Counted from the stretch's first letter, positions 18,441 to 33,223 are shown. The stretch is 64,000 nucleotides of DNA from Mogibacterium sp. (GCA_017431685.1 JAFRKO010000009.1:152286-216285); one strand, 5' to 3'. Notes: generated by a model from the letters alone, not told the origin. Translations and numbers: made by a program.

Positions 18441-19712
18441 TTAATCTTTCAGGCATGTGACAGGAGCAACATACACTCCATCTTCACGTTTATATGCAAA
18501 CGGAGCCACTCCGCATAAAACCATCAGGAATGCCGGTTCATGCATTTTTTCTGTATCAATTCTGCCGGCCAGTTTCTTAAGGTTCTCAGCCCCCTCGTTG
18601 ATCAACTTGTCTCCGCCCAGTTTCACTTCAACCAAACCATATCTGCCGTTTCTCAAATGGATCACAGCATCACATTCAAGACCAGTTTTATCTCTGTAGT
18701 GATATATGCTGCCGTCCAAGGCATCAGCATATATCCTTAGATCTCTGACACACAGGTTTTCAAATATCAAGCCCATCAATTCCAGGTCATTGATCAGATC
18801 CATAGGCCCGATACCAAGTGCTGCGGTCGCCACAGACGGATCAACAAAATATCTTGTATCCGATGTGCGGATCGCTGTCTTTGAACGCAGATTTGGATTC
18901 CACGCCGGAGAGTCTTCGATGACAAAAATCCTCTTCAGAGCATTCAAATAGCTATAAAGGGTTTCCTTGTCAAAAGTTTCTATATCATTACTTATCACAT
19001 CTGTTCGGATGGTTTCCAGAGAGACCTGCGTCGAAACATTTCTGGCATACGATCTCATGACGTGCTTTGTTCTCTCAGGATCCCGTTTCACGCCATCTAC
19101 TCTGGAAACATCGTCATTTATGACTGCATCATAATAATCAAAGGCTTGCCTTAAAGCGACTTTCTCTGAATGATTCAACGCTGCAGGCCACCCTCCCCGG
19201 CAAATCATGAAAGCAATATCCTCAATACTGTGATTGTCTATTGCAGATATATCTCCTCTGTCAAACAGATCCCTTAGTGATACTTGTCCACTGGAATCTC
19301 TGGATTCATACAAAGACATCGGTCTCATACGCATGCGAACGATCCGTCCTGTTCCCGTGTGCATACTTTCATCCAACTTGGCCGGAACGGAAGAACCGGT
19401 AAGAATGAATTGACCAAATTCACCTCTTCGGTCCACCTCATACCGCACTGCATTCCAGATATTCGTTGCAATTTGCCACTCATCAATCAAGTGTGGGACT
19501 TCACCTTCAAGAAGATTTGATGGCTTTATTCTTGCCATTTGTTGATATTGCCCTGTCATATCCGGACGGTCCATTTCTATGACGCTCTTTGCAATATGCT
19601 TTGCCGAGGTAGTTTTGCCGCACCATTTAGCTCCTTCGATCAATACCGCCCCTTTAGACTCTAAATGTTCCAGCAAGACCTTATCCGAAACTCTTTTATA
19701 GTATTCTTTCAC
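18441..19712 (-). CDS. AAA-family ATPase with a DUF4143-type C-terminal domain
   Basis: Walker A GAKWCGKTT. GTG start with an AAGGAG SD. Typical length and pattern for this family. Confidence 0.8.
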   Translation of the reverse strand: MKEYYKRVSDKVLLEHLESKGAVLIEGAKWCGKTTSAKHIAKSVIEMDRPDMTGQYQQMARIKPSNLLEGEVPHLIDEWQIATNIWNAVRYEVDRRGEFGQFILTGSSVPAKLDESMHTGTGRIVRMRMRPMSLYESRDSSGQVSLRDLFDRGDISAIDNHSIEDIAFMICRGGWPAALNHSEKVALRQAFDYYDAVINDDVSRVDGVKRDPERTKHVMRSYARNVSTQVSLETIRTDVISNDIETFDKETLYSYLNALKRIFVIEDSPAWNPNLRSKTAIRTSDTRYFVDPSVATAALGIGPMDLINDLELMGLIFENLCVRDLRIYADALDGSIYHYRDKTGLECDAVIHLRNGRYGLVEVKLGGDKLINEGAENLKKLAGRIDTEKMHEPAFLMVLCGVAPFAYKREDGVYVAPVTCLKD

Positions 19713-22175: not shown

Positions 22176-23846
22176 TTACATTGTTTTCTTCAATAGGCTG
22201 CAGCTTTCAAGCATTGTTTCATTATCCAAGGGCAATTCACGCACTTCCTTACCGTCCATAGGAATTGGGAATTTGAAAATTATGTTTCTGATCCAGCAAC
22301 CGTTGGACGGTCTCTCAGGGTATATGTCGATCCGTTCAATGAATGTCTGCATGAACTGCTTTTGTTCCAATTCTGAAAAAGATTCATACAGTGTATCAAA
22401 GGCCATAAGCATTCGGAAGATGTTCTCACTGGAAATCTTTTCCTGTCTCAGAGCATGCAATTGATCTGCTATCTCGTCGCGCTGTATATCTATTTCTTCA
22501 ATCTTATCATATTGTGCATCATAGCGACGCTGAAGATCGCTCATTTTCCTGTCATAATGCGGATCATCCGGATCCATTTCGTCCATCTGGCGTTCCAGGC
22601 GCATCTTTGTTCCTTCGGCTTTCCTCAGTTGAGCATCGATCTGCTGCAGCTGGTTCTCTATCTCTGAAGTGTCTATCGCAATTCCAATTTTCTCCTTAAT
22701 CGCATCGATGAACTCCTTGCGTTTTGTCATTGCTGAGATTATTGCCGCGACCTGAGCGTTAATCTCTGATTGCTCAATATTAGTCCGGAATTCACACTTA
22801 TGTCCGGTCGCTTTTACAGGATTTTTACAATAATAGTAATAACGCGTTTTCTTGTCCCTGGAGTGAGCTCTCATAACATTTCCGTAAAGGTTTCTGCCGC
22901 AGCATGGACATTTAAGCAATCCTGATAGTACGTGAGCATGATTAGGGTCAGTTACCTTTTCACGCTTATACCCAGTCTTCTTTCTTTTGGCTTGTGCCAG
23001 CTCCCAATCCTCCTCGGAGACTATAGCATCATGCAATCCATCATAGACTGCGTATTCTGACTGTTCTACTACATGTGTTTCATTACGTGTTCCGATTTTC
23101 TTCTCTGTCTTGCGTCTTCCATAAGCTATCTTTCCCGCATATACAGGATTATCAAGCACGCGCTTTACAAAACTTGTTGAGAACCCCGTAGTGCTGTTGT
23201 TTTGCCTCAACTTCTTTGTAAATCCGTGTCTGTTAAGATATTGTGCAACTCCACGAAGTCCTTCGTTGGTATGTATATACCGATCAAAGATCGTTCGTAT
23301 CACTTCGACCTCATCTTCAGCAATAAAGAGTTCTCCGTTTACAAGCTTATATCCATATGGTGCAAAGCCACCATTCCAATGACCTTCTCTCGCCTTCTGC
23401 TCACGTCCGGCCATCGTCTGTGCACGTATGTTTTCACGTTCGATCTCTGCAACCGCAGACAGGACAGAAATCATAAGTTTTCCGGAATCCTTGGAACTGT
23501 CTATCCCGTCATCCACGCATATAAGATTTACACCATAATCCTGCATAGTCTGAAGCGAATTGAGGACATCAGCAGCATTTCTGCCGAAACGAGACAGCTT
23601 GAAAACCAGGACATATGATACGCCGTCCTTGCCGATGATTATGTCATTCATCATACGTTGGAATTCTTGTCGGTTTTTGATATTCTTTCCGGATATGCCT
23701 TCGTCAGAATACTCACCGGCAATAGTCATGCCTTCGTAATCAGCATATTTGCGCAGCTTTTCACGCTGCGCATCTAGGCTATAACCCTCCACCTGCATAG
23801 ATGTGGATACGCGAGTGTAGATATAACATTTGATCTGTTTTTTCAC
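22176..23846 (-). CDS. large serine recombinase (resolvase domain, recombinase domain, zinc ribbon, coiled coil)
   Basis: YIYTRVSTSMQ catalytic Ser motif and LLKCPCCG zinc ribbon. GTG start with an AAGGAG SD. Confidence 0.95.
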   Translation of the reverse strand: MKKQIKCYIYTRVSTSMQVEGYSLDAQREKLRKYADYEGMTIAGEYSDEGISGKNIKNRQEFQRMMNDIIIGKDGVSYVLVFKLSRFGRNAADVLNSLQTMQDYGVNLICVDDGIDSSKDSGKLMISVLSAVAEIERENIRAQTMAGREQKAREGHWNGGFAPYGYKLVNGELFIAEDEVEVIRTIFDRYIHTNEGLRGVAQYLNRHGFTKKLRQNNSTTGFSTSFVKRVLDNPVYAGKIAYGRRKTEKKIGTRNETHVVEQSEYAVYDGLHDAIVSEEDWELAQAKRKKTGYKREKVTDPNHAHVLSGLLKCPCCGRNLYGNVMRAHSRDKKTRYYYYCKNPVKATGHKCEFRTNIEQSEINAQVAAIISAMTKRKEFIDAIKEKIGIAIDTSEIENQLQQIDAQLRKAEGTKMRLERQMDEMDPDDPHYDRKMSDLQRRYDAQYDKIEEIDIQRDEIADQLHALRQEKISSENIFRMLMAFDTLYESFSELEQKQFMQTFIERIDIYPERPSNGCWIRNIIFKFPIPMDGKEVRELPLDNETMLESCSLLKKTM

Positions 23847-24944: not shown

Positions 24945-25175
24945 TTATTTATTATCTGTATCAGTATTCTTCTTCATCTCTTCCATCATAATGTAGTACT
25001 CCAGCAACCGAAGTACGTACTTGGGAGCATGTCGGTTGTCACGCTCCCACTCAGTCACAGTCCGGTACGGAATCTGGAAGTAGTCACAGAATTCTTTGCG
25101 ATTCATACCGGTGCTCTCTCGGAGTTCTATGATCTTTTGTCTGCAGTCAGTGATTTCTTTATTCAGTATTTCCAT
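24945..25175 (-). CDS. XRE-type helix-turn-helix regulator
   Basis: GMNRKEFCDYFQIPYRTVTEWERDNRHAPKYVLRLLEY. The ATG at 25175 has an AGGAG SD. Confidence 0.75.
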   Translation of the reverse strand: MEILNKEITDCRQKIIELRESTGMNRKEFCDYFQIPYRTVTEWERDNRHAPKYVLRLLEYYIMMEEMKKNTDTDNK

Positions 25176-25286
25176 TCTCTTGCTCCTAAAACTCAATTAT
25201 ACACATTGTGTATATTGTATCACGCAAGCACGATTGACGCAATGTGTAAACACCCTTCAGCATCTGCTGATACAGAGTCTTTCTGA

Positions 25287-25646
25287 TTATGCGGCCCGAT
25301 TTTCAACAATAATCCATGGAGCCTTCCCGCTGTCCTGTATGTTTGCATAGACAACATAGTCAACTTTTCCAAAAAGCTTTTTCCTCATATTGTCAAGCTT
25401 TTCCAAAACTTCCGGTGCATGCTTTATTACAAGTTCCGCCATTAGGCTTGTCCACCTGTCAAACGCCAGATTATACTCTTCATTCTCGTAATACTTTTTC
25501 AACTCCTCACCTTCTCCCGTATTTGTCACAGTGTTTTTCCTGATAGGTCCCACAGTTATAACTTCTGAACTCAGGATAATCTGTCTGTTCTTCAAAGACA
25601 TTGTGTCGGGATTGAGCGGGAATTGAGCAGAAATGACTGAATACAA
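25287..25646 (-). CDS. hypothetical protein (119 aa)
   Basis: An ORF on the same strand as the regulator and recombinase genes. There is no convincing SD at either candidate start (TTG 25646, ATG 25601). No family recognised. Confidence 0.4.
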   Translation of the reverse strand: MYSVISAQFPLNPDTMSLKNRQIILSSEVITVGPIRKNTVTNTGEGEELKKYYENEEYNLAFDRWTSLMAELVIKHAPEVLEKLDNMRKKLFGKVDYVVYANIQDSGKAPWIIVENRAA

Positions 25647-25695
25647 ATACCAAGTTTTACATATTCAGATAACGAGAGCTCCTGCTTCATTGTCA

Positions 25696-25725
25696 TTGAC
25701 AAACATATGTTCTTTTCTGTATACT
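25696..25725 (+). promoter_or_regulatory. sigma-70-type promoter of the STAND gene, overlapping a divergent minus-strand promoter
   Basis: TTGACA (25696-25701), 18 nt, TATACT (25720-25725). The AACATATGTT palindrome (25702-25711) lies in the spacer. On the minus strand there is TTGATT-17 nt-TAGTAT preceded by TG. Confidence 0.5.
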
Positions 25726-25751
25726 AACATCACCTCAATTAGCAATCAAGT

Positions 25752-28106
25752 GTGGTCTGTATGATAAAGATGAACCGTTGTGATTTTTCTTCGATAATGA
25801 ATATCATCCGCCGCTATGTAAGTGACGATTACGAGATGGGACAGCTTGATCTTGTTGATCTTCTGTTTGCTAGTTTTTGCATGAGTGATATTGCCGAAGA
25901 TTTTGCTTTTGACAACGGTCAGGTCTGCCGATGGATGAACGGTCAGGCAAGGATCAGCCCTAAGATATCCGGATACTATGCAACAGCAATACATCAGAAG
26001 CAGCTTGCAGAAGATATCGAGAACGATCTGATCCCAATACTTACGGACAGCAGCATGGCTTGTAAAGAGATATATGATCTTGTTACACAGGATGCTTCCA
26101 TATCATGGAGAAAGAAAAGGCAGCTGGCCAAAGAATGCCCTCCCCCTGAGGACAAAGCCGAAGCTTTGTTCATAGCTTCTATACTTTGCTTTGGAATGGG
26201 TAGGGAATTTGTTAAGAGACCTTCCAATGCAAAGGCTCTGCCTACTAGTGGCATTACCTCTCCTGTTATATCCGAGCATATATTCGGAGCTGATGTTCCC
26301 CGCCCATGTCGCCATTTTTGCGGGCGTGAGGAAGAGATATCGGAACTACATGATCTCCTTGTAAATAATCAGAAAGTATTTATCACCGGGATGCCGGGCA
26401 TCGGCAAGAGTGAACTTGCAAAGGCATATGCCAAAGCGCATAGGACCGACTATACAAACATCATATACATCACATATTCTGGAGATCTTCGCAAGGATAT
26501 CGCAGATATTGATTTCGCTGACGATCCGCTTTTGGAAAGCGATCAGGAACGCTTTATCAATCACGACAGATTTCTCTGTACTCTCAGGGAAGACTCCCTT
26601 CTGATCATTGATAACTTCAACACAACAGCAGCTGCTGAAAGGACTCTTCGCAGTATAAAGCGATACAGTTGCAGGGTGCTTTTTACTTCTCGCAGCCGCT
26701 GGAGTCATTATCCTTCTTTGGGACTTACCGAGATCAGAGATATGAGTAGTCTGCTTAGTCTTACCGGCAGTCTTTATTCCGAACTTGGCGATAATGAAAG
26801 TACAGTCATAGAAATAATAGAAACAGTCCACCGTCACACTTTGGCAGTGGAGCTTGCTGCAAGGCTGCTTGAAAACGGGATACTGACTCCTGAGGAACTG
26901 CTGCACAGATTCGAAACAGAAAAGGCAGCTATGAGTGTCTCAGACAAAGTCAATGTGAGCAAGGACGGGCACACGAAAAAACAGACATATTATGCTCACA
27001 TACACCTACTGTTTTCGCTGTACAAACTATCAGATGAAGAACAGGAGATAATGCGCAGCATGACTTTCGTTCCAATCACGGGCATATCTCGCAGGCTGCT
27101 TGCAAAATGGTTATTGCTGCAGGATATGAATGTCATCAATGATCTTGTAGAGACAGGCTTTATACTTCCAAAGCCAGGACACTCCATCGCACTGCATCCG
27201 ATGGTGCAGGAAGTTGCTCTGGCAGACCTTAAGCCATCCATTACAAATTGCAGTACACTATTTGACAGTCTTCACGGCATCTGCATACTGCACGGGATAG
27301 ATGTCCCTTGGTACAGAATGCTCTTCCATGTCATAGAACAGATCGTTCTTCTTATAGATAATGATGATGTACCTTCTTATCTATGTTTTATTGAGGACGC
27401 TGTACAGTATATGGACAATTATATGTATGTCAGCGGCATTAAAGTTCTTCAGGAGCGGCTCCGTCAGCTTCTGAAGGATCCGTCGGTAGGCACAGATATT
27501 GACCGTGCTCTTTTTCTCAATAATCAGGCATATCTTGAGACTGATCCGAAGAAGATGATCCCGCTTTATAAAAAAGCCTTAAAGCTTTTGCCTGAGGTCA
27601 ATATGGATACCGCATTGCTTGTCTCCAACCTGCATGCTAACGCCGGCAATATGTATCGTATCACTGGCAACTATTCTCCTGCAAAGGAGCATATGGATGC
27701 TGCGCTGCATATTCTTAAAGAGTACGAGCTGGATAACAGGCATGATGCTATCATCCAGTTCGTCAATTATGGCCTTCTGCTGAAGGATCTCTGCCGCTAT
27801 GATGAAGCATTGAAGTTCCTATTGAAAGCTAAAGAAATCGCTGCCTTTAATATGGGGCAGGAATCATCTGATTATGCAAGGATACAGGAAGCTATTGGCG
27901 TTGTATTTCTTGAAAGCGGTAACGTAAATGAGGGTGCTGAGCATCTTAAGCAGGCAGCTCAGACATACGAGACACTGTATGAAGGCGATGAAGAATTGAT
28001 ACAGTCAAAATACCAGCAGTTCAGGTCATACTATATAGATGCAGGTATTGTTATCGGAAAGCATCTTCGCAATGCAGAACCTCAGCAATCATTATCTGGT
28101 AATTGA
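25752..28106 (+). CDS. NB-ARC/STAND P-loop NTPase with C-terminal TPR repeats and an unassigned ~190-aa N-terminal region
   Basis: Walker A GMPGIGKS, Walker B LLIIDNF, VLFTSRSR, and an HTLAVELAA helix. C-terminal TPR-like repeats. The start is uncertain (GTG 25752, ATG 25761 or ATG 25770). Confidence 0.85.
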   Translation: MVCMIKMNRCDFSSIMNIIRRYVSDDYEMGQLDLVDLLFASFCMSDIAEDFAFDNGQVCRWMNGQARISPKISGYYATAIHQKQLAEDIENDLIPILTDSSMACKEIYDLVTQDASISWRKKRQLAKECPPPEDKAEALFIASILCFGMGREFVKRPSNAKALPTSGITSPVISEHIFGADVPRPCRHFCGREEEISELHDLLVNNQKVFITGMPGIGKSELAKAYAKAHRTDYTNIIYITYSGDLRKDIADIDFADDPLLESDQERFINHDRFLCTLREDSLLIIDNFNTTAAAERTLRSIKRYSCRVLFTSRSRWSHYPSLGLTEIRDMSSLLSLTGSLYSELGDNESTVIEIIETVHRHTLAVELAARLLENGILTPEELLHRFETEKAAMSVSDKVNVSKDGHTKKQTYYAHIHLLFSLYKLSDEEQEIMRSMTFVPITGISRRLLAKWLLLQDMNVINDLVETGFILPKPGHSIALHPMVQEVALADLKPSITNCSTLFDSLHGICILHGIDVPWYRMLFHVIEQIVLLIDNDDVPSYLCFIEDAVQYMDNYMYVSGIKVLQERLRQLLKDPSVGTDIDRALFLNNQAYLETDPKKMIPLYKKALKLLPEVNMDTALLVSNLHANAGNMYRITGNYSPAKEHMDAALHILKEYELDNRHDAIIQFVNYGLLLKDLCRYDEALKFLLKAKEIAAFNMGQESSDYARIQEAIGVVFLESGNVNEGAEHLKQAAQTYETLYEGDEELIQSKYQQFRSYYIDAGIVIGKHLRNAEPQQSLSGN

Positions 28107-28165
28107 ACTAAATATATTCATTTCATAGTCTGATAAGTATAACAGATTATGTGTATTCCTCCGTA

Positions 28166-28207
28166 ACGGGACTCATGCAAAAGCATGGGTCTCGTATTTT
28201 CTTTTTG
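28166..28207 (+). terminator. rho-independent terminator of the STAND gene
   Basis: 13-bp stem ACGGGACUCAUGC/GCAUGGGUCUCGU (two G-U pairs), AAAA loop, then AUUUUCUUUUU. Confidence 0.7.
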
Positions 28208-28340
28208 CACAATTTCAGCTCAATTGAGGCTCAATGAGTTCTTCCTTTCTTTATTTTAGACTGACATCAGTCAAAAGGTGGTACCGGCCAGGTGCCGGAA
28301 ATATCAGAAGTCAATGCTGGAAAAGGAGGAAATCAAACTT

Positions 28341-29264
28341 ATGAAACGACTTTACAACACCATTATCATCGGCGTGGATCATGGGTACGGCAACATTAAG
28401 ACTGCAAATACCATCACGCCAAGCGCAGTGACCGCTTACGAATCAGAGCCCGTCTTCTCTGGGAATATCTTGGAGTACAACGGTATTTACTATCGTATAG
28501 GTGAAGGTCACAAGGAATTTGTCCCGGATAAAACCGGTGACGATGATTACTATGTTCTGACTCTCATGGCTGTAGCAAAAGAGTTGGAATTCCAGGGAAT
28601 ATGCAATGCGGATGTGCATATTGCCGCAGGACTTCCCCTCACTTGGGTACGCAGACAAAGAGAGTCCTTCCGAAGCTATCTGCTCAAGGAGCCCGACGTC
28701 AGGTTCCGCTTCAATGGCAAGGACTATCATATCCGCTTTACCGGATGCAGCTTGTACCCTCAAAGCTATCCTGCAGTCCTTGGCAGGCTCAGCGAATTCC
28801 GTGGCACCACTTTGCTCGCGGATATCGGCAATGGAACTATGAACATTCTCTACTTCAACGGCAAAAAGCCAGTTGAAAGCCGTTGCTGGACTGAGAAACT
28901 CGGTGTCCATCAGTGCATGATCGCTGCACAGAATGCAGTCTTGAATCAGTTCGGTGTAAAGATTGATCCTGTCATCGTTGAGCAGGTCATCCGTACCGGC
29001 ACTGCGGATATCGGCAGCAAGTACCTCAGCTGCATAAAAGATGTATGCCGTTGCTACTGCAGTGACATCTTCGATGCATTGAAAAGGTACGAGTATAACC
29101 CGGAGCTTATGCACCTGTATATCGCCGGAGGAGGCAGCACTCTTATCAGCCACTTCGGGGAATACGATGAAAAAGCCATCACTGTTATCAGTGATCTCTG
29201 TGCAACAGCCAAAGGTTATGAACTTCTTGCATTCGAAAGCCTTTGCAGAAAGGAGTGCAAATGA
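28341..29264 (+). CDS. parM: ParM/StbA-family actin-like plasmid segregation ATPase
   Basis: IIGVDHGYGNIKTA and LLADIGNGTMN phosphate-binding motifs. The ATG at 28341 has an AAAGGAGG SD. Confidence 0.85.
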   Translation: MKRLYNTIIIGVDHGYGNIKTANTITPSAVTAYESEPVFSGNILEYNGIYYRIGEGHKEFVPDKTGDDDYYVLTLMAVAKELEFQGICNADVHIAAGLPLTWVRRQRESFRSYLLKEPDVRFRFNGKDYHIRFTGCSLYPQSYPAVLGRLSEFRGTTLLADIGNGTMNILYFNGKKPVESRCWTEKLGVHQCMIAAQNAVLNQFGVKIDPVIVEQVIRTGTADIGSKYLSCIKDVCRCYCSDIFDALKRYEYNPELMHLYIAGGGSTLISHFGEYDEKAITVISDLCATAKGYELLAFESLCRKECK

Positions 29265-29671
29265 ATCCGGATATCAAGACTACCAATGTCCGTTTCAATC
29301 TGGACAAGGACGACCAGCGCAGAGCCTGGGAATACCTGCAAAGCATGGATAAACGGGTATTCCGCTCATACAGTCATGTGATCTCGCTTGCTCTGCTGGA
29401 CTATTTTGACCGTTATTACAGATTGCAGGAAGATCCATATTTCGAGACCCGCGAGCGTGAGGAAAGATTCGTACAGGAAATCGTGGATGCTGTAAGTGAG
29501 TCGCTGAGGCAGACATTACCGCTGTTCCTGGCAGGCTGCATGACAGGCTTATCTTCCCTACAGCCTGCATCTGATCCTACATTGCAACTAGCGCAGTCTG
29601 AGACCATTGCAGCTGAAGCACCTGAGGAGACAATGCCCGAGGACATCGACTGGGATTTCCTCGGCTCATGA
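29261..29671 (+). CDS. putative ParR-like centromere-binding adaptor (RHH-like N-terminus)
   Basis: ATGA overlap with the parM stop. It occupies the position of parR in type II partition loci. The N-terminal TNVRFNLDKDDQRRAWEYL resembles the strand-helix of an RHH fold. Confidence 0.5.
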   Translation: MNPDIKTTNVRFNLDKDDQRRAWEYLQSMDKRVFRSYSHVISLALLDYFDRYYRLQEDPYFETREREERFVQEIVDAVSESLRQTLPLFLAGCMTGLSSLQPASDPTLQLAQSETIAAEAPEETMPEDIDWDFLGS

Positions 29672-30117
29672 TCAGCGTAGCTGAGAAAAGCTAGGGCCGG
29701 TATCAAATCACAGCTTGTCTGATACCGACCAAATATCTAAAAACGGCGAAATATATATCAAGGGTTGCGCAGATAAACGGTTTCACAGCAAATGATATCA
29801 CAAAAGATGAAAAGTCATATCACTTTAGTGACAACGGCAGCAAAGATCGCGGGCAGACCTGCAGAAGAGCAGCAAATGCACTAAAAGCTACGCCTGACGC
29901 GAGGCACTTAAGTGGAAAACGCATTCAGCCTAGCAGCAACTGCATATGAAATCAACTGAAAAAACTGCCGCATGGGGGTCTGGAGCGTTGGAACAAGCAC
30001 TGCATTCCTGCTCCTACTGGCCGGAATGCGAACCTGGTGGCAGCCCCCAGACCCCCGGCTGAAGCCGATCAAACAAGATACTACACAAGTTATTTCAAGA
30101 AAGGAGACAACATAATA
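29672..30117. other. non-coding region upstream of mobC, candidate oriT
   Basis: 446 nt without a credible ORF. Inverted repeats: GGCCGGTATCA/TGATACCGACC (about 29694-29729), the palindrome CACTTAAGTG (about 29905-29914), and GGGGGTCTGG (29974-29983) with CCAGACCCCC (30047-30056). Confidence 0.35.
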
Positions 30118-30444
30118 ATGATGCGAAGAGATATAAAAAAGAGTTTCTGGGTGAACAGCGAAGAAGACCGCGATATAAAAAACAAGTCGCAGGCAGCCGG
30201 TCTGACCGAGGCTGAATTTCTCCGGCAGAGAGCCAAAGGCTATCACCCGGTCGTAATGCCGGACGAGGTCTTCTGGAAGACCATGGAAAGCATCCGCGAA
30301 TTCGCCGACAAGATCGATGAAGTCGCGATGAACGCAGGCAACCAAGCTGATATGATCGCGATCATGGCGGAAGCCATGAGATGGAGAGCTTTCCAGAACA
30401 GTATCGAGCAGGAGATCCTCATTCCGAAAAGAGGTGATAATTGA
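30118..30444 (+). CDS. mobC: MobC-family relaxosome accessory protein
   Basis: KSFWVNSEEDRDIKNKSQAAGLTEAEFLRQRAKG pattern. AAGGAG SD. Confidence 0.85.
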   Translation: MMRRDIKKSFWVNSEEDRDIKNKSQAAGLTEAEFLRQRAKGYHPVVMPDEVFWKTMESIREFADKIDEVAMNAGNQADMIAIMAEAMRWRAFQNSIEQEILIPKRGDN

Positions 30445-31784
30445 TGGCGGTAACAAAGATATGGAATATACGGGGCCGGGCGGAAAGTCCGCTTGAGTAT
30501 ATTACCAATCCCGAGAAGACTCTGCGTGAGTTCACAGAATCCGAAAAGCAGGCTCTCGCTGATGTGATCGCTTATGCAGCATGCGAGGAAAAGACAGAGC
30601 AGCTCTTCTACACGACTGGGATCAACTGCAGCGTGGAGTTCGCCCGCGACCAGTTCAACGCCAACAAGATAAGGTTTGGCAAGACCGGCGGGAATGTTGC
30701 GTATCACGCTTATCAGAGTTTCCGCGAAGGGGAAGTTACACCTGACGAAGCTCACGCTATAGGAGTACAGCTTGCGAAGGAATTGTGGGGCGACCGCTTT
30801 CAGATGGTGGTCGCCACCCATGTCAACACAAAATGCGTTCATAATCACATAGTGATCAACTCGGTTTCATTCAGAGACGGGCTGAAATTCCATGACTGCA
30901 AGGACACTTACAGACAGCTTAGGGAAGCATCCGACCGCATATGCCTCGAACACGGCCTGTCTATAGTTGAAAATCCCAAAGGCAAGGGTGTGAACCAGTA
31001 TGTCTATAAAATGGAAAAAGCCGGAATGCCTACGAGGTACAACGTAGCACGCCAGGCAATAGACGAGGCGGTCTTTCTCAGCCTGAACATAGAAGAATTC
31101 AAATATGAGCTCAGGAAGCGCGGTTACAATTACCGTTTCGATCCGCAAAGGAAGTACTGGACGATCACACCGCCCGGCGGCAGGAAGCCGATACGTATCC
31201 ATAAGCTCGGGGACGATTACACCAGAGAGAGTATAGAGCGGCGGATCTATGACAATGATCCGTCTGTACGGACAGAAAGGCTGCGGCAGCAATACCGCCA
31301 GCCAAACAATTATAATCTCCGCCGGCGCATCGACCGTATCATGGGACGCAGCGGACTTGAGAAGCTTTATCTCAGATACTGCTACGAGCTCGGCTACCTG
31401 CCGAAGTATCAGCAGAACCCGACAAAGCTCCATATTCTCCTGAAGGAAGATCTCCTGAAATGCGATCAGTACTCAGAACAGGCCAAGCTCCTGTCTAGGT
31501 ACCACGTGGACACTGAAAAGGATCTATCGGATCTTATGGATAATATCGGTGACAGGATGAAAGAACTCAGCCTTGACAGGGATGAACTCAGACGAACAGC
31601 ACGCCGCGTGCTACCGGAAAGCGAGATCAACGAAGCGAAAGACAGGATCAAAGATCTCACCGCTGAGATTAGAGAACTCCGCCATGAACTGAAGATCTGC
31701 GGAGATATACAGCAGCGCTCCGGCCATGTAAGAGAGAATCTTGCGGTCATTGACAAAGACAGGACGCGTGAAAGAGTACGTTAA
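30444..31784 (+). CDS. relaxase/mobilization nuclease (MobA/VirD2-type)
   Basis: AYHAYQSF and THVNTKCVHNHIVINSVSF (histidine triad region). TGATG overlap with mobC. Confidence 0.9.
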   Translation: MAVTKIWNIRGRAESPLEYITNPEKTLREFTESEKQALADVIAYAACEEKTEQLFYTTGINCSVEFARDQFNANKIRFGKTGGNVAYHAYQSFREGEVTPDEAHAIGVQLAKELWGDRFQMVVATHVNTKCVHNHIVINSVSFRDGLKFHDCKDTYRQLREASDRICLEHGLSIVENPKGKGVNQYVYKMEKAGMPTRYNVARQAIDEAVFLSLNIEEFKYELRKRGYNYRFDPQRKYWTITPPGGRKPIRIHKLGDDYTRESIERRIYDNDPSVRTERLRQQYRQPNNYNLRRRIDRIMGRSGLEKLYLRYCYELGYLPKYQQNPTKLHILLKEDLLKCDQYSEQAKLLSRYHVDTEKDLSDLMDNIGDRMKELSLDRDELRRTARRVLPESEINEAKDRIKDLTAEIRELRHELKICGDIQQRSGHVRENLAVIDKDRTRERVR

Positions 31785-31801
31785 AACCACAGGAGGCTTG
31801 G

Positions 31802-33223
31802 ATGACAGAAACCACAACAGATACTATATATAATGACAATTCAGATCTCAGCAGTAACGAATCGCTTACAGGATCAGGAGACTGGACAGATCAGCTAACG
31901 CTGAACAAGAACGGCAGAGCCTGTAATACACTCTGCAACATGCGGCTGATCCTTGAAAATGATGAGGATTTCCGGGGCATCGTATTCAATCAGCTTGCTG
32001 ACGATCTTGAGATCAGAGGCAGTGTTCCCTGGAATCATAATTCAAAGTACTGGCGCGATGTGGATGACGCGCAGCTCATGTGCCTCGTTGATGAACGCTA
32101 CGGCAGCTTCACCCAGAACAACTACCGCACAGCGCTGTCAAAGGTAACAGACGACAGATCATACCACCCTGTCAAGGATTATTTCGAATCGCTGCCTGAA
32201 TGGGACAATAAGCCACGAATCGACACTTTGCTCATCGATTACTTCGGCGCAGACGATACTCCTTATGTCAGAGCGGTGACAAGAAAAATGCTCTGCGCTG
32301 CTGTCAGCAGGATATATAAGCCCGGGATCAAGTTTGACCATATACTTGTTTTCAATGGTCCGCAGGGTATCGGCAAGTCCACATTCATCTCAAAGCTCGG
32401 GATGGAATGGTACTCCGACAGCCTCAGTATTTCCGACATGAACGATAAGACGGCAGCAGAAAAGCTTCAGGGTTACTGGATACACGAGATCGGCGAGCTT
32501 GCCGGAATAAGAAAGGCTGACATAGACAAGGTCAAGGCATTCATCTCGCGGCAGGATGACAAGTACAGGGCTTCATACGGTCGCAGGGTCACCCCTCACC
32601 CAAGGCAGTGTGTGTTCTTCGGAACCACGAATGCAGAAAGTGGCTTTCTTAGAGACATAACAGGTAACCGCAGATTCTGGGCAGTCAGGACTCCCGGTAC
32701 AGGTATCTTAAAGCCTTGGGATCTCACGCAGGATGATGTCGATCAGATATGGGCTGAGGCTCTTTACCTTGCCGGTCAGGGTGAAACTCTGTTCCTCTCA
32801 CACGAGTTGGAAGAATCAGCCAGAGCCTGCCAGGCTGCTGCTATGGAACATGACGACAGAGAAGGTCTTGTCACAGACTACCTTGACCTGCCGCTGCCCG
32901 GAAACTGGAATGAAATGTCTCTTTACGACAGACAGGATTATGTTCAGAGTCAGGGATCGCTTTATAGCGGCGAGGACGTCAGAAGAAGAGATTACGTATC
33001 CAACATAGAGATCTGGTGCGAATGCTTCTGCAAAAACAAGGCTGATTTCCAGCATAAGAACAGCTTTGAAATCAGTGCCATAATGACGCGTATAGACGGA
33101 TGGGAGAAGACCGGCAGGACCATGTGGCTCCCAATCTATGGAAAGCAGCGGATCTACAGACGGAAAAGAGAGAACGACTCTTTGGAACAAACTACGGAAC
33201 GATCTGCGGAACAAACGTTATAA
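31802..33223 (+). CDS. VirE/VapE-family P-loop protein (primase-helicase-like)
   Basis: VFNGPQGIGKSTF Walker A within a typical VapE context. AGGAGG SD. Confidence 0.85.
   Translation: MTETTTDTIYNDNSDLSSNESLTGSGDWTDQLTLNKNGRACNTLCNMRLILENDEDFRGIVFNQLADDLEIRGSVPWNHNSKYWRDVDDAQLMCLVDERYGSFTQNNYRTALSKVTDDRSYHPVKDYFESLPEWDNKPRIDTLLIDYFGADDTPYVRAVTRKMLCAAVSRIYKPGIKFDHILVFNGPQGIGKSTFISKLGMEWYSDSLSISDMNDKTAAEKLQGYWIHEIGELAGIRKADIDKVKAFISRQDDKYRASYGRRVTPHPRQCVFFGTTNAESGFLRDITGNRRFWAVRTPGTGILKPWDLTQDDVDQIWAEALYLAGQGETLFLSHELEESARACQAAAMEHDDREGLVTDYLDLPLPGNWNEMSLYDRQDYVQSQGSLYSGEDVRRRDYVSNIEIWCECFCKNKADFQHKNSFEISAIMTRIDGWEKTGRTMWLPIYGKQRIYRRKRENDSLEQTTERSAEQTL

Follow-up and report, generated by a model that had tools for sequence, protein, structure and literature searches.

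The closest described counterparts, in presumed working logic, of the protein considered here are transcription activators of the STAND superfamily. The protein, a predicted NTPase with C-terminal tetratricopeptide repeats (TPRs), is encoded on a mobile element in a 64,000-nt stretch of DNA from Mogibacterium sp. (GCA_017431685.1 JAFRKO010000009.1:152286-216285; hereafter the window, with positions counted from its first nucleotide). In MalT from Escherichia coli and GutR from Bacillus subtilis, a STAND switch gated by ligand and ATP is combined with a helical-repeat sensor, and both proteins activate promoters via repeated boxes; GutR, from a Firmicute, is similar in size and has an N-terminal helix-turn-helix (HTH) domain. 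Receptors of the RRNPP type (Rap, NprR, PlcR, PrgX, AimR) are TPR-type sensors that gate transfer or lysogeny on mobile elements of Firmicutes; they have no NTPase module and sense secreted, processed peptides. MalT and GutR are listed among STAND-type transcription activators (references in PMC13581612), and AfsR, with the order DNA-binding domain, nucleotide-binding oligomerisation module (NOD), TPR, binds direct repeats that are phased by 11 bp and overlap a poor -35 element (PMC10936776). Judging from comparison of related loci, the gene in the window is most likely a conserved signal-sensing regulator of serine-recombinase integrative mobilisable elements in Clostridia. The initial annotation of the window had proposed either a defence sensor or a regulator of element transfer, and regulation of the element fits the evidence better.

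A search with the whole protein yielded more than 2000 relatives; genomic relatives numbered 238, and the best 80 species genomes were used to compare gene layouts. The best of them, with 46–50% identity across about 98% of the protein, abound in Lachnospiraceae; a single homologue, P0081, has its exact sequence indexed in 4832 blocks of the assembly collection, and it occurs on at least 1000 contigs. In at least 80 species genomes, a relative with 45–50% identity is found at the same position. The order shared by the best 80 genomes runs from one or more leftward recombinase genes through the rightward STAND gene and a variable gap of 0.2–9 kb to a set of backbone genes, encoding a ParM-like protein, a small protein at the position of ParR, RepA_N, an IstB-like protein, DUF3847, and MobL; large serine recombinases are encoded upstream on the opposite strand in 57 of the 80 loci. 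The element of the window retains the STAND, ParM, and ParR-position genes, after which NikA, a PF03432 relaxase, and a VapE-like protein replace the usual module. A distant homologue (26% identity) on plasmid pRUMAL02 of Ruminococcus albus lies among genes for three serine recombinases, a primase, a relaxase with MobC, and ParM.

Variable cargo occupies two slots, one on either side of the STAND gene, which hold type I restriction–modification systems, AbiTii, AbiEii, AbiD, AbiLi, and YhcG/PDC-S02, as well as ABC transporters, two-component systems, and oxidoreductases. By gene order, the STAND gene is fixed backbone in all related elements examined, not cargo. The headline of the initial annotation, mobile-element cargo, therefore has to be dropped for this gene, since it is the slots around it that vary; the description of the flanking modules, recombination and regulation on the left and partition and mobilisation on the right, stands.

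The gene is bracketed by two sets of short repeats, initially encountered as an inverted repeat flanking the gene and then resolved as two sets of ATTGAnn heptamers, here called iterons. The ATTGAGC heptamer occurs 14 times in the window against 14.4 expected and is thus not enriched by itself; the significant feature is only the phased, oriented arrangement of heptamers. In 1.4 Mb of related loci, 250 ATTGA-N6-ATTGA dimers were found: 137 within 250 nt upstream of the STAND gene (68 of 76 loci), in one orientation throughout, 78 within 300 nt upstream of the ParM gene (40 of 42 loci), all in the opposite orientation, and 35 elsewhere. Each conserved set consists of three heptamers, with the TCAAT reading pointing towards a -10-like hexamer. 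On the right side, each of the 36 distinct contexts has TAnnnT at exactly 21 nt past the proximal iteron; on the left side, the same distance was found by script in 41 of 43 distinct contexts, or 42 counting the window, whose left set the script missed due to a degenerate proximal iteron. No -35-like hexamer and no TG of an extended -10 element was seen at these promoters in distinct related contexts on either side. The window fits the 21-nt geometry on both sides, on the left only when the degenerate proximal heptamer is counted.

Given this conserved geometry, the two sets apparently mark two outward, activator-dependent promoters, denoted here P_L and P_R. P_L faces the recombinase string, P_R faces the string of partition, replication, and mobilisation genes, and the STAND gene lies between them with a consensus promoter of its own. 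This promoter, TTGACA-18-TATACT, had been proposed in the initial annotation and is present, with 11 of 12 consensus matches; promoter-like sites as a class are no commoner in the window than in shuffled sequence, and this one is conserved in sequence and position among related elements. In the loci that we call class B, TTGAAT-17-TATGAT occupies the same place, and the promoter lies downstream of the left iterons, as it does in the window; in class A it lies upstream of the left iterons and reads through them. The 13-bp-stem terminator noted earlier is likewise found, and related loci share its layout, in which the T tract is followed by the first iteron.

The right set precedes the first gene of the rightward operon whichever gene that is: ParM in 46 loci, RepA_N in seven, DUF3847 in one, and the ParR-position gene in one. 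Eight iteron-bearing loci yield no match to ParM or to ParR at an E-value limit as loose as 1e-2, and ParR is therefore unlikely to be the common iteron binder, though it may bind where it occurs; family and PDB searches left the ParR-position protein without a match, so that even its identity as ParR is positional only. When ORFs of at least 40 aa were clustered in ten representative iteron-bearing elements, including that of the window, STAND was the sole family found in all ten, followed by RepA_N and MobL (eight each) and ParM, ParR, and the recombinase (seven each). A scan of metagenomes for iteron triplets, with flanks of up to 8 kb, shorter than the largest gaps between the STAND gene and P_R, gave 41 matches with the correct geometry. 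Most of these adjoin backbone genes of the elements, which argues against a host regulon, and the few others lie on short or disrupted contigs. All eight sites of the left type adjoin a STAND gene, and the metagenomic cases without one (L153, L161, L183) are visibly deleted or disrupted. By elimination among the encoded families, the STAND protein is the best candidate for a factor acting at both promoters.

The reading frame runs from GTG 25752 to 28106 on the plus strand, corresponding to the 784 aa originally reported; the public gene call for the identical protein P0001, from a Mogibacterium sp. metagenome-assembled genome, starts at ATG 25761 (781 aa), and the N-termini of homologues, MERCDFSS, match the next ATG, at 25770 (778 aa). 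Residues are numbered throughout in the 781-aa form. All four core motifs listed in the initial annotation are present: Walker A GMPGIGKS at residues 210–217 (26388–26411), Walker B LLIIDNF at residues 280–286 (26598–26618), VLFTSRSR at residues 306–313, and HTLAVELAA at residues 359–367. In an alignment of 52 sequences, Gly210, Gly213, Gly215, and Lys216 of Walker A are invariant; in Walker B, Asp284 is invariant and Asn285 replaces the second acidic residue in at least 90% of sequences. Slow ATP hydrolysis, known from engineered trap mutants, would be expected of a Walker B motif of the type hhhhD-N in place of D-D or D-E. Three further motifs, LFT[ST]R (Thr309, Thr310, Arg311), H-T-L-A-V-E-L (His359, Thr360, Glu364), and L-H-P (His479, Pro480), are each at least 90% conserved, and by their position in the structural model and established knowledge they correspond to the TTR-like sensor I, GLPL-like, and MHD-like motifs of NB-ARC proteins.

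In Pfam, the AAA_16, NB-ARC, and nSTAND families all score under their gathering thresholds for the protein of the window (NB-ARC, PF00931: 19.5 bits, cutoff 23.5), and several homologues carry precomputed PF00931 hits. By its profile scores and motifs, the protein is thus NB-ARC-like without curated-threshold membership in NB-ARC. The best NCBIfam profile is NF040586 (FxSxx-COOH system TPR protein), positions 1–226 of which align to residues 182–409 with an E-value of 2.5e-22 and 79 bits, the cutoff being 300. The full-length AlphaFold model, built from the 52-sequence alignment (pLDDT 88.4), consists of an N-domain (residues 8–147), a poorly modelled linker, a P-loop nucleotide-binding domain (NBD), a helical domain, a hairpin with a winged helix, and helical repeats (residues 498–760). 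Foldseek aligned this model with 6mfv (E-value 8.2e-10 over 706 alignment columns, global TM-score 0.21–0.25), with CED-4 (8jo0; target TM-score 0.62, root-mean-square deviation 5.6), with Avs3, Avs4, and Avs5 (8dgc, 8dgf, 9nc9, 9jap; E-values from 8e-8 to 9e-4), with plant and animal NLRs, and with TPRs of the kinesin-light-chain type. On this model, NBD, helical, and winged-helix domains form a NOD fold followed by a repeat sensor, which places the protein in the STAND superfamily. In the sensor, Pfam TPR_12 is above threshold at residues 671–740 (E-value 3.9e-12), and a profile search of the PDB retrieved the TPRs of kinesin light chain and BtubC at 5e-10. The TPR array is the most divergent domain of the family, with a mean identity to the query of 31% vs. 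52% for the NBD. Hence, the earlier description of the protein, an NB-ARC-like STAND core, TPRs, and an N-terminal module without family assignment, holds.

The N-terminal module is modelled with high confidence (m25958cb06aba, 28-sequence alignment, pLDDT about 96 over residues 8–147) and is all helical; across the family it is acidic, with a median isoelectric point of 4.7 and a median net charge of -7.5. Residues 1–190 match no family in Pfam, NCBIfam, PADLOC, or PHROGs. Foldseek with the N-domain found nothing below an E-value of 0.1 in the PDB (top E-value 0.16, TM-score about 0.2); the top match in BFVD had an E-value of 1.0, and the best XRE-like match there 1.7. A sequence-profile search of the PDB gave nothing significant, only the FadR C-domain at 0.2, and none of the 28 members had any Pfam hit, HTH domains included, at an E-value of up to 10. 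The segment VCRWMNGQARISP, at about residues 40–70 and taken initially as a hint of an XRE HTH, is not supported as such by these searches or by hhalign, which aligned 15 residues of the N-domain to an assembled XRE alignment with a probability of 0.13%, a weak test given that three of the XRE sequences were entered by hand; the XRE or winged HTH reading of residues 1–190 was rejected, finding no support in Pfam, PDB profiles, Foldseek (PDB and BFVD), or hhalign. In keeping with the initial annotation, the fold and family searches also revealed no recognisable nuclease, TIR, SIR2, or protease, and the 52-sequence alignment has no catalytic-looking conserved motif in this domain. The annotation had further associated a regulator, as opposed to cargo, with a gene invariant in related elements and an N-terminus that models as a plain winged HTH or XRE domain; the gene is indeed invariant, and the N-terminus does not model in this way.

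A HMMER search of 1.84 billion representative proteins found the N-domain in 383 clusters. In long hits (720–806 aa), the domain always begins within the first approximately 26 residues, and shorter hits look like fragments. By its distribution, the domain is confined to one architecture, unlike the shuffled effector and adaptor domains of conflict systems, and a role as a shared adaptor or effector-associated domain was rejected, as it is essentially restricted to the N-terminus of this architecture among these representatives.

Immediately to the left of the gene, the initial annotation had placed an unassigned, divergent 119-aa ORF at 25287–25646. The divergent neighbour is there, but its extent has to be revised: the first 48 codons of the ORF overlap the conserved left iterons and P_L, and from this overlap and the alignments the ORF was probably mis-delimited, its conserved coding part starting near TTG 25502 (71 aa). 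Residues 56–85 of the 119-aa ORF (EEYNLAFDRWTSLMAELVIKHAPEVLEKL) match a family of small acidic proteins of 44–55 aa with the motif M.QNI.FERC.DFL.RMI.KYG.E.L; the protein of the window, with the motif NLAFDRW..LMAELVIKH..EVLEKL, is a diverged member. This family is encoded by the first gene after P_L, the position held in the window, in 45 of 76 loci (e.g., L050, 9682–9816; L044, 9688–9852), and this count led us to reject the small protein as a universal partner of the STAND protein. It is present in 28 of 28 loci whose recombinase is at least 50% identical to that of the window, in none of nine loci with only distant recombinases, and in two of 14 loci with none, and thus belongs to the recombination module. 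Based on this co-occurrence, the small acidic protein is a candidate recombination directionality factor or a candidate ligand of the TPRs.

Taking the layout of promoters, iterons, and genes together, we consider that the STAND protein has an even prospect of being a master activator of the MalT/AfsR/GutR kind, which would control the recombination operon and the partition and mobilisation operon of its element via the iterons. We infer that it binds the iterons, that this binding activates transcription, that a ligand is involved, and that the response is linked to excision and transfer. The constitutive sigma-70 promoter would yield a low level of the protein, which at rest would be a closed, ADP-bound monomer. 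A ligand binding the divergent TPR array would open the NOD, and exchange of ADP for ATP would then drive multimerisation; His479 of the LHP motif and the Asp284–Asn285 Walker B suggest an NB-ARC-type switch with slow hydrolysis. The multimer would present several N-terminal output domains to three 11-bp-phased ATTGAnn heptamers, situated at about -34 to -62 of P_L and P_R, promoters without a -35 element. P_L would drive the small protein and the serine-recombinase string, P_R would drive the ParM, replication, and mobilisation genes, and their joint activation could couple excision with maintenance and mobilisation. In class A elements, occupancy of the left iterons may block the read-through transcription of the STAND gene itself, providing negative feedback on its synthesis. 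A bolder version, which we regard as unlikely, makes the protein an NLR-like induction switch, in which the TPRs would sense a specific cue inside the cell, either the small acidic protein of the element itself or, for instance, a protein from a phage or a helper conjugative element, and the ATP-bound oligomer would dock on the heptamers via an acidic all-alpha DNA-binding fold not seen before, co-activating excision, partition and replication, and mobilisation.

Several observations weigh against activation from the iterons by the STAND protein. No DNA-binding domain is recognisable in it, HTH and winged HTH domains being unmatched by Foldseek, Pfam, and hhalign, and an acidic N-domain with a median isoelectric point of 4.7 is unusual for a DNA-binding module, although the domain may be a DNA-binding fold of a new kind. 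In locus L153 (7416–14164), by its gene content a STAND-deleted derivative, only a 29-aa remnant of the STAND protein is left between the left-end module and an intact P_R with ParM. The elimination described above covered ORFs of at least 40 aa, so that shorter peptides and host factors could also be the binders. The R. albus homologue has two unrelated palindromes and no ATTGA iterons upstream, and the region upstream of R. albus parM (L093, 14250–14330) contains three direct and three inverted TTGACA-type repeats with a period of about 11 bp, which look classical, as expected by analogy for a ParR-bound parC. Finally, defence genes are frequent in the neighbouring slots, and a guilt-by-association score would label the clade defence-associated. 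Some of these points would suit a protein that regulates the element through protein contacts, as a partner of the recombinase or directionality factor, an anti-repressor, or an RNA polymerase co-activator. The iterons would then be occupied by some other factor, for example an OmpR-type response regulator of the host, the ParR-position protein in those elements that have it, or a small peptide missed in annotation. An acidic all-alpha orphan domain is well suited to be an interaction module, a recombinase is encoded upstream in 57 of 80 loci, and the small acidic protein of the recombinase clade, which could be the TPR ligand, is encoded immediately adjacent. Heptamers with 4-bp spacers are, moreover, the classic site type of winged-helix response regulators. 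Data on Streptomyces antibiotic regulatory proteins (SARPs) support such sites for winged-helix regulators (PMC10936776). Nevertheless, the iteron promoters occur essentially only inside these elements, a poor fit to a host regulon; some iteron-bearing elements lack ParR, and the same is true of RepA_N, the small protein, and the recombinase; and the explanation, which we consider doubtful, requires a further binder restricted to the elements.

Two further readings were weighed. The protein could be an Avs/NLR-like anti-phage or anti-plasmid sensor, whose TPRs recognise an invader, whose NOD oligomerises, and whose N-domain is a new effector, the gene being kept for host protection. Its core is structurally near Avs3, Avs4, Avs5, and plant and animal NLRs, the N-domain is not recognisable as DNA-binding, and the slots around it often hold type I restriction–modification, AbiTii, AbiEii, AbiD, AbiLi, and PDC-S02 genes, with PDC-S05 in the window; many STAND clades have been classed as defence-associated from such context (PMC13581612). 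However, PADLOC, NCBIfam, and PHROGs scans gave no real match to a known defence family, a possibility that was rejected: HMMs of Avs and other defence families reach no further than the P-loop, PADLOC yielding only local weak matches of the STAND protein to mad8 (4.4e-5), VakA (1.1e-4), generic TPRs, and PDC-S73 (3.7e-3), and NCBIfam DS8_antiphage 20.6 bits with a cutoff of 790. The N-domain is not of a known toxic class (nuclease, SIR2, TIR, protease, or membrane-disrupting), has no catalytic-looking motif, and occurs in no other architecture, unlike shuffled effectors; position and architecture are invariant while neighbours vary, which is not the pattern of patchy island content; and the repeat region of about 260 aa compares with sensors of at least 400 aa clustered in a survey of defence proteins (PMC13581612). 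The gene also lies between two element promoters that share one operator, with no other common regulator among ORFs of at least 40 aa, and we judge a defence role to be rather improbable. Lowest of all is our estimate for an accessory role in ParM/ParR partition, in which ParR would bind the iterons as parC centromeres and the STAND protein would influence how the excised element segregates. The gene co-occurs with those for ParM and the ParR-position protein across very different elements, including the window and pRUMAL02, and R. albus parM is preceded by iterons of the 11-bp type; 11-bp iterons upstream of parM are typical of parC. Set against this are the eight iteron-bearing loci without a ParM or ParR hit, the left iteron set, which has no adjacent par genes, and the fixed 21-nt register to the -10 hexamer on both sides with no -35 element, which looks like activation rather than a centromere or repression; such a role is very improbable.

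The coordinates of the features are collected in Table 1. Among the neighbouring genes, the ORF6N protein, located between the recombinase gene and the small HTH gene, matches PADLOC PDC-S05 end to end (E-value 1.7e-104) and also PHROG families described as anti-repressors; none of the 80 related loci has a homologue, which makes it genuine variable cargo of the left slot. A 423-aa AAA_14/DUF4143 ATPase (18441–19712, minus strand), encoded outside the element and left of a WYL-type regulator, matches PADLOC PDC-S01 (E-value 2.8e-58). The GC skew is positive only across 26001–33000 and negative in the rest of the 64-kb window, matching a block of plus-strand genes in a minus-strand region.

Table 1. 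Features of the STAND gene, its promoters and iterons, and neighbouring genes in the window
Feature	Position	Strand	Remarks
STAND-TPR protein gene	25761–28106	+	781 aa from ATG 25761; ORF list, identical public protein P0001, alignments, full-length model
N-terminal orphan domain, residues 8–147	25782–26201	+	Eight to nine helices; model m25958cb06aba
Poorly modelled basic linker, residues 148–189	26202–26327	+	
Nucleotide-binding oligomerisation module	26328–27230	+	NBD 190–322, helical domain 328–390, beta-hairpin and winged helix 396–490
C-terminal helical and TPR sensor array, residues 498–760	27252–28040	+	Pfam TPR_12, PDB profile hits, Foldseek
Sigma-70-type promoter of the STAND gene, TTGACA-18-TATACT	25696–25725	+	11/12 consensus matches; homologous promoter in class B loci
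Intrinsic terminator of the STAND gene, 13-bp stem and T tract	28166–28205 (stem-loop 28166–28195)	+	Abuts the right iteron set
Left iteron set, 11-bp period	25600–25639	+	ATTGTGT 25600–25606, ATTGAGC 25611–25617, ATTGAGC 25622–25628, degenerate ATGACTG 25633–25639
Right iteron set, 11-bp period	28207–28235	-	Plus-strand reading GCACAAT 28207–28213, GCTCAAT 28218–28224, GCTCAAT 28229–28235; inverted relative to the left set
-10-like hexamer TATCCT of putative P_L	25573–25578	-	Exactly 21 nt beyond the proximal iteron; no -35
-10-like hexamer TAGACT of putative P_R	28257–28262	+	Exactly 21 nt past the last iteron; no -35
Small leftward gene, probably 71 aa from TTG 25502	25287–25502	-	Ribosome-binding site GGGAGAAGG at 25511–25519
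Large serine recombinase	22176–23846	-	
ORF6N/PDC-S05 protein, 334 aa	23868–24872	-	Between the recombinase gene and the small HTH gene
83-aa HTH protein	24945–25196	-	
ALP_N/ParM-like protein	28341–29264	+	
142-aa ParR-position protein	29243–29671	+	
NikA-like protein	30037–30444	+	
MobA/VirD2 relaxase	30441–31784	+	
VapE-like protein	31802–33223	+	

The ends and copy number of related elements also vary. In 12–13 of them (L004, 8605–9048; L013–L015, L026–L030, L055, L059, L073, L091), no recombinase gene lies within 10 kb of the left end, which carries an ORF with only a sigma-70 region-2 segment, its N-terminus similar to sporulation sigma factors and running into unrelated sequence. This ORF is followed by a gene for a 181–197-aa double-HTH protein, and the 3' half of the sigma gene was not seen downstream; the ORF could represent a sigma gene that has been interrupted or a fragment carried by the element. 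Several genomes contain at least two elements (L031, L043, L048, L068, L076, and pairs such as L036/L057, L031/L043, and L064/L065); some copies are arranged in tandem or nested, and a second recombinase or ParM/ParR is then encoded in the flank. All copies have the ATTGA core of the iterons in common, and by this shared core co-resident elements could cross-talk.

These elements are very common in gut Clostridia of humans and animals, and their accessory cargo includes defence and transporter genes. Should the STAND protein prove to be their master switch, it would offer a testable handle on the signal for excision and mobilisation of such elements; sensing of the STAND/NLR type, known from immunity and metabolism, would then also serve to control horizontal gene transfer, and a new output or DNA-binding fold may be added. 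Were the NLR-like switch to prove correct, the pattern-recognition logic of innate immunity would be used by a hitch-hiking element to time its movement. The family also advises caution in neighbourhood-based prediction of defence genes (PMC13581612), as the clade borders defence-rich cargo hotspots and would probably be called defence although it belongs to the element backbone.

Our literature search turned up no account of this protein family, of these iteron promoters, or of any STAND regulator carried by an integrative mobilisable element, and comparison with known systems thus proceeds feature by feature. AfsR and the large SARPs of Streptomyces share with the protein of the window the order of an N-terminal output domain, NOD, and C-terminal TPRs, and a similar cis-logic at P_L and P_R, as promoters controlled by AfsR-type regulators have 11-bp-phased direct repeats over or in place of a poor -35 element (PMC10936776). 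In contrast, the N-terminus of AfsR consists of an OmpR-type winged helix and BTAD, whereas that of the window protein is an acidic all-alpha orphan with no winged HTH signal; the proximal repeat lies 21 nt from the -10 element in the window and 8 nt in AfsR; the window has three repeats, on a mobile element in Clostridia; and binding in the window is a prediction. The likeness to MalT and GutR is one of domain logic, with no sequence-level relationship detected and none searched for; MalT differs in having a C-terminal LuxR HTH and a sensor that is not of the TPR_12 type, and the window family differs in the D-N Walker B.

Avs1–5 have in common with the protein the STAND core fold, the order N-terminal module, NTPase, helical repeats, and carriage on mobile DNA near defence genes, yet the protein has no Avs HMM match, no N-terminus of a toxic class, a short repeat array, and a fixed place in the backbone. 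The best structural match, 6mfv, a solved STAND protein with a TPR sensor, also has the NOD followed by TPRs; the domains match but their relative arrangement does not, and 6mfv has no equivalent of the N-domain. NF040586 is the closest sequence profile for the NOD, but the score is below the membership cutoff, and the N-terminus and genomic context differ. As for RRNPP receptors, a small gene adjoins the receptor gene in the window family, but the small neighbour in the window has no signal sequence, and it is missing from 31 of 76 loci. Thus, the protein is a member of the STAND superfamily outside the curated Avs, nSTAND, FxSxx, and XRE families, which presumably works most like the STAND transcription activators, with an orphan output domain and a role in a mobile element.

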